Made by a program: the position numbers and the translations under genes. The notes beneath the pieces are model-generated. The model made no database searches and had not been told where the DNA came from. It saw nothing but the letters and a program-made list of their open reading frames with translations. This document shows positions 1,225 to 8,718 of a stretch of 8,718 nt of DNA, in pieces. The stretch lies in IMG/VR virus record IMGVR_UViG_2681813271_000005; one strand, written 5' to 3'. Positions within the stretch are counted from its first letter, which is position 1. Each line of letters begins with the position of its first letter. The DNA is from a virus (taxonomy: Duplodnaviria; Heunggongvirae; Uroviricota; Caudoviricetes).

Positions 1225-4923
<3,699 letters not shown>

Positions 4924-5080
4924 TAAATAATTCAGGGATTATTAACTGTAACCTCATTTCAAAAGGATACATAAATGAAATCTAATGAACGTACTTTCAA
5001 TAGTACCAGTACTAACCCATTCAGTATTAGCGGAAAAGAAACAATTGGAATGAAGAAAAGGATTTACAGGAGTAAGAGCT

Positions 5081-5377
5081 ATGGCACAGGGATTACAATG
5101 TTGGAATGCAGCGGGTGTATTAGTAGTAGATCTGACTGATTATAACATACGTTTTATGGGTACTTATACTGTCAAGGCTACTTCTGCACAGACCTATACT
5201 GTATCAGTACCAAATATGAAAACTACAGGCTGGTTTGTACACTATGCCCCCGCCAGTGATACCTTTAATGAGTGGTCAGCCTTTTGTAATAATGGGTCAT
5301 TTACTGCGGTTTATTTGCCAACATATGCACCGTTAGCTGGTAACTACACTTTTAACGTATATAAGTGGACGGCGTAA
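5081..5377 (+). CDS. Hypothetical protein; paralog of the next gene at its N-terminus; possible tail-tip accessory protein
   Basis: 98-aa ORF with AGGAG (5068-5072) 8 nt before the ATG. The N-terminus MAQGLQCWNAAGVLVVDLTD aligns with MA-GFEVYNSAGALTIDSTN of the next ORF. It lies immediately downstream of the J-like gene. Confidence 0.55.
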   Translation: MAQGLQCWNAAGVLVVDLTDYNIRFMGTYTVKATSAQTYTVSVPNMKTTGWFVHYAPASDTFNEWSAFCNNGSFTAVYLPTYAPLAGNYTFNVYKWTA

Positions 5378-5378
5378 G

Positions 5379-6035
5379 ATGGCAGGTTTCGAGGTATATA
5401 ATTCAGCGGGTGCACTGACTATAGATAGTACTAACAAGTCGATAATGACGGGTGCAGTAAAGGCCATGGGAAATCTAACTGATACGGGATACTACACAGG
5501 CTTTACCTGTGCCTTCGGTAATGGTGGATCGCTCGGTTTCGTTATGCCATCAGTAGTAGCTAACAGGAACACAACACAGTACTGGTTCCAGATACAGAAA
5601 GACGGGGCATGGTGTTTCCCTGGTGCCTATATGTTCCAGCCTGGCATGGGCAGGTTCATGACAAGTAGTCACACGGCTACCCCCACATCTGGTTTTCTTG
5701 ATGTGTTCAGTGAAGAAGGTACTTTAATCTGGTCTGCTGCATCAGCGGCAACAATGCCACGTATCAGGGGATTTTTGACAGCACCTGCGGCTACCGATCT
5801 CAGTACTGCCATTACGGTAACGTCTCCAGTAGCTGATCCCTGGTTCTGCTGGTCACAATGTCCGGGGAACATATCAGATGATGGTACAGTAATTGGGTAC
5901 TCTGGTCTGGTTATCAGGCGTAATTCCAGTACTTCATTCAGTCTACAGTACGTTTCAAAGAACCAGAAAACCTACCGCCAGGCAATGGGGAATAATGGTA
6001 TCCAGATAGCATTGGCGACATTTACAGGGTATTAA
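5379..6035 (+). CDS. Hypothetical protein; paralog of the previous gene at its N-terminus; Cys-containing; possible receptor-binding or tail accessory protein
   Basis: 218-aa ORF starting 1 nt after the stop of the previous gene. It shares the N-terminal motif G[LF]xx[WY]N[AS]AG[AV]L[TV][VI]D[LS]T[DN] with that gene. Contains four Cys, including FCWSQCPG. Confidence 0.55.
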   Translation: MAGFEVYNSAGALTIDSTNKSIMTGAVKAMGNLTDTGYYTGFTCAFGNGGSLGFVMPSVVANRNTTQYWFQIQKDGAWCFPGAYMFQPGMGRFMTSSHTATPTSGFLDVFSEEGTLIWSAASAATMPRIRGFLTAPAATDLSTAITVTSPVADPWFCWSQCPGNISDDGTVIGYSGLVIRRNSSTSFSLQYVSKNQKTYRQAMGNNGIQIALATFTGY

Positions 6036-6036
6036 T

Positions 6037-6078
6037 ACAATAACAATAACAATAACAATAACAATAACAATAACAACA
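6037..6078. repeat. Hexanucleotide tandem repeat (ACAATA)x6 plus one imperfect unit (ACAACA)
   Basis: Read directly from the sequence: six perfect ACAATA units at 6037-6072 and ACAACA at 6073-6078. It sits between the stop of the 5379-6035 gene and the AAGGGA ribosome-binding site of the 6092 gene. Confidence 0.9.
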
Positions 6079-6091
6079 AAGGGATTTCAGT

Positions 6092-6364
6092 ATGGATATC
6101 GGTGCTATTTTAGCTCTTGTTATTTCTGGATGCGTATTCCTTTATACTATCTTTAGAGATAATACAAAGGATACGAATGATCTATTAACTCGCGTTGCTA
6201 CTCTTGAAACTACCATTGCTGTACTGGAAAGTAGTATTTCCCGTATTGAGGATGATCAGGATAAGATGAGAGATACACTAAGTAAACTGGAAACACAAAT
6301 CCATGAACTTGATGTTAAGATTGAAAGGATTATTGCAATTCTTCAGCAGAAACAACGACCATAA
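6092..6364 (+). CDS. Small membrane-anchored coiled-coil protein (one N-terminal TM helix); candidate lysis regulator, spanin-like or superinfection-exclusion protein
   Basis: 90-aa ORF with AAGGGA (6079-6084) 7 nt upstream. The N-terminus IGAILALVISGCVFLYTIF is a hydrophobic helix of about 20 aa. The rest is charged with heptad-like periodicity (LETTIAVLESSISRIEDDQDKMRDTLSKLETQIHELDVKIERIIAILQ). It ends at the bidirectional terminator and is convergent with the lysozyme gene. Confidence 0.55.
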   Translation: MDIGAILALVISGCVFLYTIFRDNTKDTNDLLTRVATLETTIAVLESSISRIEDDQDKMRDTLSKLETQIHELDVKIERIIAILQQKQRP

Positions 6365-6365
6365 A

Positions 6366-6402
6366 AAAAGGCATAGTATGTCATTCGTACTATGCCTTTT
6401 CT
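6366..6402. terminator. Bidirectional rho-independent terminator
   Basis: Perfect 9-bp stem GGCATAGTA (6370-6378) / TACTATGCC (6388-6396) with a 9-nt loop. An A-run (6363-6369) lies upstream and a T-rich tract (6397-6415) downstream, so it works on both strands. It sits between convergent genes, with the - strand stop codon at 6403-6405. Confidence 0.8.
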
Positions 6403-6852
6403 TTATTTGTTTTTAAGTACTGCAATCATGGAATTCACACGGTTTGGTGTCTGCCTGTACCATAGAGAACACTTAGCCTGTTTAATTGCTTCAAGGTAAT
6501 CATGTGCTTTCAGGGCTGCTAACATCTTACGGAATTTCTTCACCCCGCCAATACCTAACTGGAAGGTCATGATAATAATAAAATCATTCCAGTCATCGGG
6601 AAGATTTAACCCTAATGTCTGTACCTGCATAATTGTTTTGGCTAAATCGCGAGATAGTAACTTGTCTGCTTCGCTTTCAGTAATGCCAGTACTAAAATCT
6701 TCTCCCGCCTGAATTAAGTGACCATATCCAATAGTACTACATCCTAAACTATCAGCATATGGATAGAATTTCCCATTTCTGAAGTACTTCAAATTTGCCT
6801 GATACTCTTTAGTACCTTCATATTCTTTTAATCGTGTTTTTAAATCGCTCAT
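6403..6852 (-). CDS. Endolysin, T4 lysozyme-like (glycoside hydrolase family 24 muramidase)
   Basis: 149-aa ORF. The catalytic signature E12-G ... YAD34SLGCST40IGYGHL matches the T4 lysozyme Glu/Asp/Thr triad and the TIGxGH motif. The C-terminal SLWYRQTPNRVNSMI closely matches T4 lysozyme SRWYNQTPNRAKRVI, and MTFQLGIGGV matches MVFQMGETGV. No N-terminal hydrophobic (SAR) segment. Confidence 0.9.
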   Translation of the reverse strand: MSDLKTRLKEYEGTKEYQANLKYFRNGKFYPYADSLGCSTIGYGHLIQAGEDFSTGITESEADKLLSRDLAKTIMQVQTLGLNLPDDWNDFIIIMTFQLGIGGVKKFRKMLAALKAHDYLEAIKQAKCSLWYRQTPNRVNSMIAVLKNK

Positions 6853-6862
6853 TTACTAAATA

Positions 6863-6881
6863 CCTATAATGAATTTATAGG
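6863..6881. promoter_or_regulatory. Perfect palindrome CCTATAA-N5-TTATAGG in the 36-bp divergent intergenic region; contains a TATAAT -10-like hexamer (6865-6870); candidate operator or divergent promoter core
   Basis: Read directly: CCTATAA (6863-6869) and TTATAGG (6875-6881) are reverse complements. TATAAT sits 18 nt upstream of the ATG at 6889, with AGGA (6879-6882) as ribosome-binding site. On the - strand, TATAAA (complement of 6872-6877) lies upstream of the lysozyme start. Confidence 0.35.
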
Positions 6882-6888
6882 AATATTT

Positions 6889-7323
6889 ATGATGAGTGAA
6901 TGGAAATACTCGGATGATTGGAGCGAGGAGGAAATGTTATCCGGTGAATATGCTGGTTTCGTTTATATCTTTCAGTTTGAGGATGGTTCTAATTATGTCG
7001 GTGCTAAGCAAATCTATCAGCGGGTTAAGGATGCGAGAAAGCTAAAGCCCACTTCAAAGGAAAATGGCTGGCGTGAGTACCTCAGTAGTTCCAATGTCGT
7101 TAAAAACAAAATTGAAAATGGTGAACAGTACTCAAAAACGATTCTATGGTGCTTCGCAACTATGCGAGAGGTAATGATTGTAGAGGCAATACTGATCCTT
7201 CATCAGATGCTTAAACCGGAATGTTTGAATCTGGCAATGATGAGTAAGATTAGATCACCAAATGCAAAGGATAAAAAAAGACTACTCGGAATAGTACAGG
7301 AACTATTGGAGTACTTGAATTGA
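6889..7323 (+). CDS. GIY-YIG family nuclease, short free-standing catalytic domain (homing-endonuclease-like)
   Basis: 144-aa ORF. AGFVYIFQFEDGSNYVGAKQIYQRVKDAR matches the GIY-(10-11 aa)-YVG motif plus the conserved Arg, as in I-TevI SGIYQIKNTLNNKVYVGSAKDFEKRWKRH. A downstream MREVMIVEAI is consistent with the conserved catalytic Glu helix. There is no long C-terminal DNA-binding domain. Confidence 0.7.
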   Translation: MMSEWKYSDDWSEEEMLSGEYAGFVYIFQFEDGSNYVGAKQIYQRVKDARKLKPTSKENGWREYLSSSNVVKNKIENGEQYSKTILWCFATMREVMIVEAILILHQMLKPECLNLAMMSKIRSPNAKDKKRLLGIVQELLEYLN

Positions 7324-7332
7324 GGTAAATAT

Positions 7333-7911
7333 ATGGCAAGTGGAATAAATGGGATTGGTAGTATAAGGAACTATATACAAACGCAGGGAGTTAGATTAAA
7401 TAATCAATTCCAGAATGAAATAATTAAACGTTCCAAGCTACTATCCCAAAGAATGCAGGGTGATTTGAATAATAGCGTTGACCGTGGGGCAGTGGGCTTT
7501 ACTCAACGTTCCATCCTTTTCTTCTATAGAAAGGTTGGGAGAAATTCAGTTACATCGACCATCATGGTTAAAGATATTCAGGCTAAGTACCTTTATCAAG
7601 TACTGGTACAGCCAAAGGCAATTGATAAGTTTATACCTACTTCATCTACAAGATTAACTAAGCAGGGCAACATTTCAGGACTGAAAAAGAATCTTTTAAG
7701 TGAACGATATAAGGTAGTGAAGGGTAAGAATGGTAAAGAACGATTAATTGATACCGCAAAGAAAGATACCAAGAAGAAAACCAAACGTGTAATTGGCTTA
7801 CGTGAGAAGAAACAACGTCGCCTTATCTATGACTTCTATAAGGAAGCCAATGATGGTGTAAGGGTAATTATGAGCGGTATTCAGGGAACATTCAGGATAA
7901 GTAGACAATGA
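7333..7911 (+). CDS. Hypothetical protein with a strongly basic Lys/Arg-rich C-terminal region; possible nucleic-acid-binding protein
   Basis: 192-aa ORF with GAGGT (7322-7326) 6 nt before the ATG. Lys/Arg-rich tract KGKNGKERLIDTAKKDTKKKTKRVIGLREKKQRR. The stop overlaps the next start (ATGA at 7908). Confidence 0.5.
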   Translation: MASGINGIGSIRNYIQTQGVRLNNQFQNEIIKRSKLLSQRMQGDLNNSVDRGAVGFTQRSILFFYRKVGRNSVTSTIMVKDIQAKYLYQVLVQPKAIDKFIPTSSTRLTKQGNISGLKKNLLSERYKVVKGKNGKERLIDTAKKDTKKKTKRVIGLREKKQRRLIYDFYKEANDGVRVIMSGIQGTFRISRQ

Positions 7912-8219
7912 ATTTTGAGCAACATTATGGTGATTTAATAAGCAAGATTAAGCTAAATGGCATGACACCAGATGGTAATAGTATGCCAATTAACAAATGT
8001 TTTCTTGATAAGAAATTTCAAAAGGTCGTTAAGAAAAGTAATTATCAGATTGATAGCTATATGAACGTTATTTATGAGAAGAAGAAAGATTTCAAAGTTG
8101 GTGAAGTACTTGAATGGGAATTACAGGGTGAAAAGATGCCTGTATTTCTAATTGAGAGTAAAAAGCTCTTTGTGAAGGGTAAACATTTTTGGGTATATGC
8201 CGTGGGGATTATTGAATGA
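7908..8219 (+). CDS. Hypothetical protein
   Basis: 103-aa ORF coupled by ATGA overlaps to the upstream gene (7908) and the downstream gene (8216). No recognisable motif. Confidence 0.45.
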   Translation: MNFEQHYGDLISKIKLNGMTPDGNSMPINKCFLDKKFQKVVKKSNYQIDSYMNVIYEKKKDFKVGEVLEWELQGEKMPVFLIESKKLFVKGKHFWVYAVGIIE

Positions 8220-8249
8220 TTAGTATATTGATTGAGTTTCTGAAGTCAG
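8216..8249 (+). CDS. 5' end of a hypothetical gene, truncated by the assembly gap
   Basis: ATG at 8216 overlaps the previous stop (ATGA). Only 11 codons (MISILIEFLKS) are readable before the N-run; the rest of the tracked ORF is X. Confidence 0.25.
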
Positions 8250-8565
8250 NNNNNNNNNNNNNNNNNNNNNNNNNNNNNNNNNNNNNNNNNNNNNNNNNNN
8301 NNNNNNNNNNNNNNNNNNNNNNNNNNNNNNNNNNNNNNNNNNNNNNNNNNNNNNNNNNNNNNNNNNNNNNNNNNNNNNNNNNNNNNNNNNNNNNNNNNNN
8401 NNNNNNNNNNNNNNNNNNNNNNNNNNNNNNNNNNNNNNNNNNNNNNNNNNNNNNNNNNNNNNNNNNNNNNNNNNNNNNNNNNNNNNNNNNNNNNNNNNNN
8501 NNNNNNNNNNNNNNNNNNNNNNNNNNNNNNNNNNNNNNNNNNNNNNNNNNNNNNNNNNNNNNNNN
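8250..8565. other. Assembly gap (run of N)
   Basis: 316 consecutive N characters read directly from the sequence. Its true length and content are unknown. Confidence 0.99.
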
Positions 8566-8639
8566 TTGGTGGAAGCTGAAAGATTTTTCCTTTAATATGT
8601 GTTTTGAGTTAATAAAATAGCAATCTAAGGATTTGATTT

Positions 8640-8718
8640 ATGAGTGATGCAATTACTACAGCAGCAATAAAAAAATTGTATGGACTATCCGCTGGGCAAT
8701 GTAATATTTGCCGAACTT
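8640..8718 (+). CDS. 5' end of a hypothetical gene running off the window; contains a C-x2-C motif
   Basis: ATG at 8640 with AAGGA (8627-8631) 8 nt upstream. It translates MSDAITTAAIKKLYGLSAGQCNICRT with no stop before the window ends. The CNIC motif could begin a zinc-binding or HNH-type domain, but the fragment is too short to say. Confidence 0.35.
   Translation, partial: MSDAITTAAIKKLYGLSAGQCNICRT

Follow-up and report, generated by a model that had tools for sequence, protein, structure and literature searches.

The window analysed here is a stretch of 8,718 nucleotides of viral DNA (Caudoviricetes; IMG/VR record IMGVR_UViG_2681813271_000005), and the subject of the analysis is a lysozyme gene that occupies positions 6403..6852 of its minus strand. 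The open reading frame (ORF) begins with ATG and encodes 149 amino acids (aa). On one side lies the end of a plus-strand late operon, whose last gene encodes a 90-aa protein and is convergent with the lysozyme gene. On the other side is a divergent plus-strand unit of four genes, consisting of seg, which encodes a GIY-YIG nuclease domain protein, and the genes for proteins of 192, 103 and 97 aa. A terminator hairpin separates the lysozyme gene from the first of these groups and a palindromic spacer from the second. The original prediction, made from the letters of the window, described the gene as an orphan, without an adjacent holin or spanin on its own strand, that had perhaps arrived by mosaic acquisition or was expressed at a separate time. 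The comparisons described below point instead to the endolysin of a prophage, in a layout that is conserved among its relatives.

The product of the gene is a soluble GH24 (T4-type) lysozyme, as had been predicted, and the probable endolysin of the prophage. It matches Pfam family PF00959 (Phage_lysozyme) with 45.7 bits (cut-off 22.3, E = 1e-11), and phmmer connects it to the PDB chains of T4 lysozyme (T4L) and gp5 with E-values of about 1e-11 to 1e-9. The NCBIfam scan gave a GH24 match only, far below threshold. Residues E12, D34 and T40 share alignment columns with E11, D20 and T26 of T4L and are invariant in alignments of 17 and 26 homologues, while 13 residues are inserted between the catalytic Glu and Asp relative to T4L. 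The AlphaFold2 model of the protein (pLDDT 94.3, pTM 0.87) is matched by Foldseek to both T4L and the gp5 lysozyme domain with a probability of 1.00 and TM-scores of 0.72-0.78 (about 0.75). No signal peptide, signal-arrest-release (SAR) domain or transmembrane domain (TMD) was detected, no 19-aa Kyte-Doolittle window reaching 1.5 anywhere in the protein; the absence of a SAR or signal sequence claimed earlier is thus upheld by hydropathy. The N-terminus, MSDLKTRLKEYEG, is charged. The median pairwise dN/dS of the lysozyme among family members is 0.14. Judged from these features, the gene encodes an intact, selected T4-type lysozyme that lacks an export signal and has predicted muramidase activity, and this enzyme is most likely the one with which the phage bursts its host cell.

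The exact lysozyme protein is encoded in Shigella sonnei chromosomes such as that of strain 53G (HE616528.1), and the index of the assembly collection lists an identical protein in 747 blocks. To the left and right of a run of N, the window itself agrees 100% with an S. sonnei provirus in IMG/VR. In S. sonnei the right end of the prophage abuts mipA-yeaE-yeaD-gapA-msrB, and the lysozyme gene lies about 4 kb from that end. Upstream, the prophage carries genes for a lambda-type portal, a protease-capsid fusion, a fibre-like protein, the major tail protein and the tape measure, followed by the tail-tip genes of the window. The element, about 35 kb long, is a temperate prophage of siphovirus type whose integrase is a serine recombinase. 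A megablast search with positions 5000-8200 gave no match among cultured phages or 5,426 complete Escherichia coli genomes. Relatives were located at the protein level, and the remaining genome was read from IMG/VR contigs.

Prophages of E. coli, Enterobacter, Pseudescherichia, Phytobacter and Citrobacter commonly carry homologues of the lysozyme, with 58-99% identity. Gene order and orientation are kept in about 18 distinct loci, which occupy at least three chromosomal sites and span a range of lysozyme identity from 58 to 100%. The conserved block begins on the plus strand with the tail tip gene J and genes for proteins of 98 aa, 218 aa (DUF8377) and 90 aa, continues with the reversed lysozyme gene and returns to the plus strand with seg and the 192-, 103- and 97-aa genes. 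All of these cassette genes co-diverge under purifying selection, with dN/dS values of 0.12-0.25 for the neighbours of the lysozyme, and the GC content of the lysozyme gene (37%) falls within that of its neighbours (35-41%). The lysozyme is also the sole credible minus-strand gene of the window, the other minus-strand ORFs being short and nested in plus-strand genes. This part of the original prediction is correct for the window but not for the prophage as a whole, in which two further genes are reversed: one for 190 aa, located upstream of the window and ahead of the distal tail protein, and one for 151 aa on the downstream side, near the end. Neither of these two is present in the relatives, which leaves the lysozyme as the only conserved reverse gene. 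Comparison across the loci indicates that its orientation is an old, conserved trait of the family and not a recent insertion.

The closest cultured relative of the structural module is found in the first ~25 kb of Escherichia phage DCP80 (PQ671644), with about 30% amino acid identity in the capsid and tail tip. In DCP80 the homologues of the 192- and 103-aa genes directly follow J, and are themselves followed by a GH24 endolysin gene (37% identity) on the plus strand. A cluster located after the tail tip is therefore ancestral, and the inversion of the lysozyme is specific to the prophage family described here. DCP80 also differs in that no homologue of seg, of the 90-aa gene or of the holin-like gene was detected in it. 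As a separate observation, the DCP80 record (L007 in the comparison) is assigned to Straboviridae/Gaprivervirus and has motA and ndd genes of T4 type, yet a siphovirus-type head and tail module occupies its first ~25 kb; either chimeric assembly or unusual mosaicism may explain the record.

A candidate for the holin gene expected of a lysis system with a cytoplasmic endolysin is also present in the cassette. A holin-like gene (8216..8579, plus strand), identified by PF11351, PHROG 3427 and hydropathy, starts 1.36 kb from the lysozyme gene, three genes away, and encodes 97 aa in unmasked identical copies. In the window, most of it is hidden by the run of N (8250-8565, 316 nt), and for this reason the original prediction missed it. 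Identical copies have 246 nt in place of the mask, which is thus not length-preserving, so that the end coordinate of 8579 is nominal. An ORF of 134 aa in the ORF list (8216..8620) is an artefact of the mask. The 97-aa sequence was taken from two copies (L001 and L019) that are identical to the window on either side of the mask. It scores 25.0 bits against PF11351 (GTA_holin_3TM), for which the cut-off is 24.8 (E = 2.9e-5), and matches the holin family PHROG 3427 with E = 1.9e-4. PF11351 is matched by 9 of 13 homologues, with a best E-value of 2.2e-6. The protein has an amphipathic helix at its N-terminus, and its C-terminal region (residues about 52-96) is hydrophobic. In most homologues, a hydropathy scan scores one transmembrane segment, which just reaches the threshold; 2 of 14 show another one at the C-terminal end. 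Read by eye, the C-terminal region would form two transmembrane helices. The gene is found in almost all related loci. Two allelic types exist, with either about 80-100% or about 40-45% identity to that of the window, as seen in a comparison of four loci (L014, L021, L026 and L034) with three others (L001, L012 and L029). These types do not track the identity of the lysozyme (94% for lysozyme and 45% for the holin-like protein in L021; 69% and 86%, respectively, in L029), which indicates recombination between the two genes within the cassette. From its sequence, the 97-aa protein is the probable holin of the phage.

A second lysis cassette was sought in a related contig of 35.6 kb, which was read almost end to end, from the integrase through the right end (L021, L041 and L105). 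Its lysozyme and portal are 94% and 99% identical, respectively, to those of the window prophage. The order of its genes is serine recombinase, small genes, HNH, a 510-aa ATPase-like gene, DUF6998, terS, terL, portal and onward. A survey of this contig by Pfam, PHROG and TMD prediction revealed no second muralytic enzyme, holin family or spanin. The region from integrase to portal was covered in this relative, and the S. sonnei copy was covered from the portal to the prophage end, where no other lysozyme, amidase or peptidase was matched among the called genes. Two candidates upstream of terS were considered and rejected. A 146-aa protein with three TMDs and a 121-aa secreted protein, considered together as the potential true holin or lysis genes, occur in 4 and 2 of 36 related loci, respectively. 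Neither has family matches, and their sporadic occurrence marks both as cargo.

The lysozyme gene is bounded on its 3' side by a bidirectional intrinsic terminator (6366..6400), recognised by a terminator scan, as inverted repeat I2 and by its fold energies, that is common to the plus-strand late operon and the minus-strand lysozyme. The hairpin is flanked on both sides by A and T runs, and folds with -21.7 kcal/mol on the plus strand and -19.1 kcal/mol on the minus strand (z = -8.3 and -6.8). It lies 2 nt past the stop codon of the 90-aa gene on the plus strand and 3 nt past that of the lysozyme on the minus strand. Its position is kept in all relatives, although the stem takes one of two unrelated sequences (GGCATAGTA... 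or GGGGC...). The earlier description of a monocistronic gene closed by a bidirectional terminator was therefore accurate.

On the 5' side, the 36-bp spacer (6853..6888) between the divergent start codons of lysozyme and seg is a candidate divergent promoter/operator or a hairpin that sequesters the Shine-Dalgarno (SD) sequence, as judged from its sequence, folds and comparison among loci. It is a palindrome in every family member, with a length of 36-45 bp. Each arm holds the SD of one gene together with its complement, and the loop is AT-rich. As RNA, the spacer of the window folds with -8.0 and -7.1 kcal/mol on the two strands. In all 12 diverged loci compared, the predicted fold of either strand pairs the SD (-5.9 to -14.3 kcal/mol, z = -1.9 to -7). 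The sequence of the outer arms, TAAATA/TATTTA, does not vary across loci. The inner arms covary (CCTATA/TATAGG, CCTT/AAGG, CCTCA/TGAGG and TTCC/GGAA), as judged from per-sequence folds without a formal pair count and with an alignment, made by MAFFT, that is not structure-aware. On either strand, the start codon of the other gene and the 5' arm of the spacer together read (C/T)ATAAATA in the 5' to 3' direction. An Rfam scan gave nothing above threshold. The sequence TATAAATA was considered as a reused late-promoter motif and rejected, there being no further copy within the window. Since terminator and short divergent spacer together delimit the lysozyme unit, its expression separately from the main late operon is plausible on anatomical grounds.

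The 90-aa protein encoded by the last gene of the late operon (6092..6364, plus strand) is a possible lysis accessory, based on a TMD scan, PHROG matches and an alignment with Mu gp25. It is predicted to be a single-pass protein with an N-terminal TMD (residues 3-21) and an acidic coiled coil, and its charge pattern suggests an N-out/C-in topology. The gene is found in all related loci. The protein matches PHROG 739 ('Rz-like spanin') with E = 2.7e-5 and phrog_1009 with E = 4.6e-6. It aligns collinearly with Mu gp25 at 24% identity (E = 0.004), although hhalign gives this pair a weak probability of 18.6% (E = 1.3e-3). DUF2730 (PF10805), the family of Mu gp25, is matched by 5 of 12 homologues; the E-values, 3.9e-4 at best, miss the threshold, and generic coiled-coil families are matched alongside. 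The family is not among the Pfam matches of the window's own protein. With the Mu gp25 releasin (Chamblee et al. 2022, PMC9239132) the 90-aa protein would share a start of about 2-4 residues outside the membrane, an N-terminal TMD, a cytoplasmic domain of about 70 aa that forms an acidic coiled coil, and a gene position adjoining that of the endolysin. The two cases differ in that the endolysin here has no SAR domain to be released and the phage does not resemble Mu. Some DUF2730 types occur together with cytoplasmic endolysins, where their role is not known (PMC9239132). Two other assignments were rejected: homology to the Mu gp23 inner-membrane spanin (i-spanin) has an hhalign probability of 0.3%, and an identity as a lipoprotein or outer-membrane spanin (o-spanin) is contradicted by Cys14 of a lipobox-like ISGC, which is not conserved. 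A lipobox scan of all window ORFs of at least 30 aa likewise gave no o-spanin near or within 6092-6364. It is possible that the protein is a releasin-like or i-spanin-like lysis accessory.

Ahead of the 90-aa gene, at 6037-6076, the window contains a repeat of the A-R-N type. Its copy number varies among S. sonnei genomes (2, 5, 6, 7 or 10), and it is absent from relatives in other hosts. It shows a weak partial match to the Rfam family CrcZ (25 bits against 95). The repeat could be an Hfq-binding or phase-variable leader.

The first gene of the divergent unit, seg (6889..7323, plus strand), encodes a 144-aa protein with a SegE-type GIY-YIG nuclease domain. The product scores 60.7 bits against PF19835 (cut-off 25), matches the homing endonuclease family PHROG 7363 and conserves the GFVY...YVG motif. 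The gene lies at the same site in most loci, with 44-100% identity and a dN/dS of 0.13. In four loci decay has left just its C-terminal part, and a site that cleanly lacks the gene was not observed. The sporadic presence expected of a selfish mobile gene is thus not seen among the related loci, and with a length of 142-144 aa the product has no room for a DNA-binding domain. Based on these observations, seg looks like a long-term resident or domesticated nuclease and not an actively homing element. The gene that follows (7333..7911, plus strand) encodes a conserved 192-aa protein that resembles the HK97 gp10-like head-closure/connector proteins, with a long N-terminal helix, and is probably a virion neck protein. 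The next (7908..8219, plus strand) encodes a conserved protein of 103 aa and is translationally coupled to both the 192-aa gene and the holin-like gene by overlapping stop and start codons. It is conserved in most loci and has a weak homologue in DCP80, and searches with its product gave no match in Pfam, PHROG or NCBIfam.

Beyond the cassette, the end of the prophage in S. sonnei (window 8640-8718 and onward) carries cargo that is completely different among relatives. It consists of a 264-aa protein, the reverse-strand 151-aa protein, which has three TMDs, and a 241-aa DNA methyltransferase (L001:7489-8283, 7008-7463 and 6248-6973, respectively). The 264-aa protein has an N-terminal HNH nuclease domain like that of CBASS SAVED-HNH effectors (PADLOC E = 4e-23), and the methyltransferase matches phrog_3820 with E = 3e-103. 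In several S. sonnei genomes (L002, L003, L010 and L011 being the affected ones), insertion sequence (IS) elements with HTH_Tnp_1/rve transposases have entered the tail-tip gene at positions that differ between genomes, and in one S. sonnei genome IS elements are also present in the tape-measure gene and the 90-aa gene. The affected parts of the window are 1621-4923 and 6092-6364. These insertions are independent inactivations of the prophage.

The arrangement can be compared with several known systems. With T4 lysozyme, encoded by gene e, the protein shares its GH24 fold, Glu-Asp-Thr triad and lack of a signal sequence, and both genes stand alone. The ribosome-binding site of T4 gene e is part of the 3' arm of a possible hairpin (PMC3014915), and the same is predicted here from the sequence of the spacer, which recalls the translational hairpin of that gene; two divergent and similar ribosome-binding sites would on their own produce some palindromy, and this limits the analogy. 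Identity to T4 lysozyme is 29% over the alignable part, and the prophage is not known to have the late-transcription machinery of T4. The T4 gene e arrangement proposed in the original prediction thus applies to the stand-alone, signal-less gene but does not extend to the holin: here, in a temperate siphovirus-type prophage, the holin-like gene lies within the same cassette (1.4 kb away), whereas the T4 holin gene t is at a distant locus. The nearest sequences in cultured phages are lysozyme domains of jumbo myovirus hub proteins (RaK2, K64-1, GAP32 and JNE01), with 45-48% identity over about 95% of the protein. Those, like the T4 gp5 domain, are annotated as baseplate or tail proteins of large lytic myoviruses or form part of them, whereas the present protein is a free one of 149 aa in a 35-kb temperate element. 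The inferred logic of a soluble endolysin that needs a holin is shared with the lambda SRRzRz1 and P22 13-19-15 cassettes. In contrast to these, the genes here are neither contiguous nor co-oriented: the endolysin gene is reversed, the GIY-YIG gene and two late genes separate it from the holin-like gene, the cluster is at the far end of the tail module and not upstream of terminase, and no two-component spanin was found. The gene transfer agent (GTA) 3TM holins (PF11351), to which the Rhodobacter capsulatus GTA release holin belongs, share with the 97-aa protein an amphipathic helix at the N-terminus and a C-terminal region that is hydrophobic and, in the 97-aa protein, read as two helices. 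Here the gathering score is reached marginally, a holin function is predicted, and the host is that of an enterobacterial prophage.

The best explanation of the locus, and a likely one, is that the lysozyme is the endolysin of the S. sonnei prophage beside mipA, expressed from its own unit, dependent on a holin and held in a conserved reversed layout. Most likely, the T4-type muramidase would accumulate harmlessly in the cytoplasm until the holin permeabilises the inner membrane and allows it to reach the cell wall. The likely holin would be the GTA_holin_3TM-type protein encoded last in the divergent seg-192-103-holin unit, and the membrane-anchored coiled-coil protein might assist in disrupting the envelope, which its weak matches tentatively suggest. 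From the anatomy of the locus, transcription of the lysozyme gene would start in or just to the right of the palindromic spacer and end at the bidirectional terminator that also closes the main late operon. Several observations weigh against this explanation. The top PHROG match of the lysozyme is 13211, 'baseplate hub subunit and tail lysozyme' (E = 2e-39), and its best PDB sequence matches (6xc0 and 7cn7) are lysozyme domains of tails or baseplates and not endolysins. The score of the holin is marginal, PF11351 is missed by 4 of 13 homologues, and a tblastn search of cultured phages with the 97-aa protein returned no homologue. Neither an o-spanin lipoprotein nor a unimolecular spanin (u-spanin) was found, which leaves the outer-membrane step unexplained. 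In several S. sonnei genomes the tail-tip gene is broken by IS elements, and the prophage may be defective there. Finally, no consensus sigma-70 promoter for the lysozyme was detected in the spacer at the scan threshold. The divergent promoter region of the original prediction, between two start codons that diverge 36 bp apart, is therefore presumptive.

The annotation of the PHROG and PDB matches raises the question of whether the lysozyme is instead an accessory or virion-associated peptidoglycan hydrolase that acts in DNA entry, or cargo expressed by the lysogen. Such a role would explain the separate reversed unit beside tail and neck genes, between which the gene lies, and the fold matches, like the sequence matches, include the gp5 lysozyme domain at the top; in addition, reverse-strand genes of late regions are often cargo. 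However, the protein is a bare catalytic domain without any structural or attachment domain, and every member carries it, which sets it apart from the other reverse-strand genes of the region, cargo of sporadic occurrence. The constant proximity of the holin-like gene and the absence of another muralytic enzyme from the nearly complete relative also argue for lysis, and an accessory role seems improbable. A decaying, non-inducible element in S. sonnei, in which the gene is intact but idle, is given an equally small chance. The IS insertions that split the tail-tip, tape-measure or 90-aa gene, and the lack of a visible integrase at the mipA-proximal end in S. sonnei, would fit with it. Nevertheless, every ORF of the window copy is intact, the identical protein is spread over the many indexed blocks noted above, and purifying selection across the family indicates that the gene is functional in the lineage. 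Decay would also concern current use in one host and not the identity of the gene.

The mosaic origin put forward in the original prediction fares worst. Under this explanation, the lysozyme would be an orphan obtained by recent exchange, for example with the neighbouring homing endonuclease, and the real holin would be located elsewhere in the genome. The affinity to jumbo myovirus hub lysozymes (about 47% identity) and not to siphovirus endolysins is compatible with exchange, as is a SegE-like gene 36 bp away, and the plus-strand endolysin of DCP80, placed after the 192- and 103-aa homologues, shows that a rearrangement took place at some point. Yet orientation and neighbours are kept in about 18 diverged loci, down to 58% identity, the GC content equals that of the neighbours, the cassette genes, including seg, co-diverge under purifying selection, and the holin-like gene belongs to the cassette itself. 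Taken together, these features place the rearrangement far back, as an ancient and family-wide event, and a recent orphan origin is highly improbable. Nor is the gene without candidate lysis partners, given the convergent transmembrane coiled-coil neighbour and the holin-like gene. The original prediction had allowed that a conserved orientation and context with a holin immediately adjacent outside the window would make the gene ordinary, and this is essentially what the related loci present. The locus is unusual in layout and ordinary in kind.

A more specific interpretation combines the spacer and the 90-aa neighbour, and in this joint form it is rather unlikely. The spacer would be a two-way expression switch, and the 90-aa protein a distant DUF2730-like lysis factor. 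In T4 gene e and in I-TevI, a hairpin conceals the ribosome-binding site of longer transcripts, and late promoters lie in the DNA of the 5' arm (PMC3014915). By analogy, the 5'-arm DNA of the spacer and the start codon of the other gene may together form a -10-like element, (C/T)ATAAATA, on either strand, such that only transcripts begun inside the palindrome are translated, and read-through transcripts may fold and hide the ribosome-binding site. The 90-aa protein, for its part, may aid a cytoplasmic endolysin in a spanin-less phage that is not Mu-like. If this is true, one symmetric element would couple the output of endolysin to that of the seg-neck-holin unit, or time the one against the other.

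The endolysin assignment largely closes the lead that the original prediction had opened, as the 'orphan' lysozyme becomes an ordinary endolysin, that of an enterobacterial prophage family which is widespread but uncharacterised. This family (serine integrase, about 35 kb, structural genes about 30% identical to those of cultured phages) has no studied member, and its lysis genes are dispersed, partly reversed and without a recognisable spanin. Experiments might be worthwhile only on the palindromic spacer with its two ribosome-binding sites and on the releasin-like neighbour. The family offers a compact natural case in which a cytoplasmic endolysin and a holin would be coordinated from a symmetric divergent control element, and could show whether small membrane-anchored coiled-coil proteins substitute for spanins.

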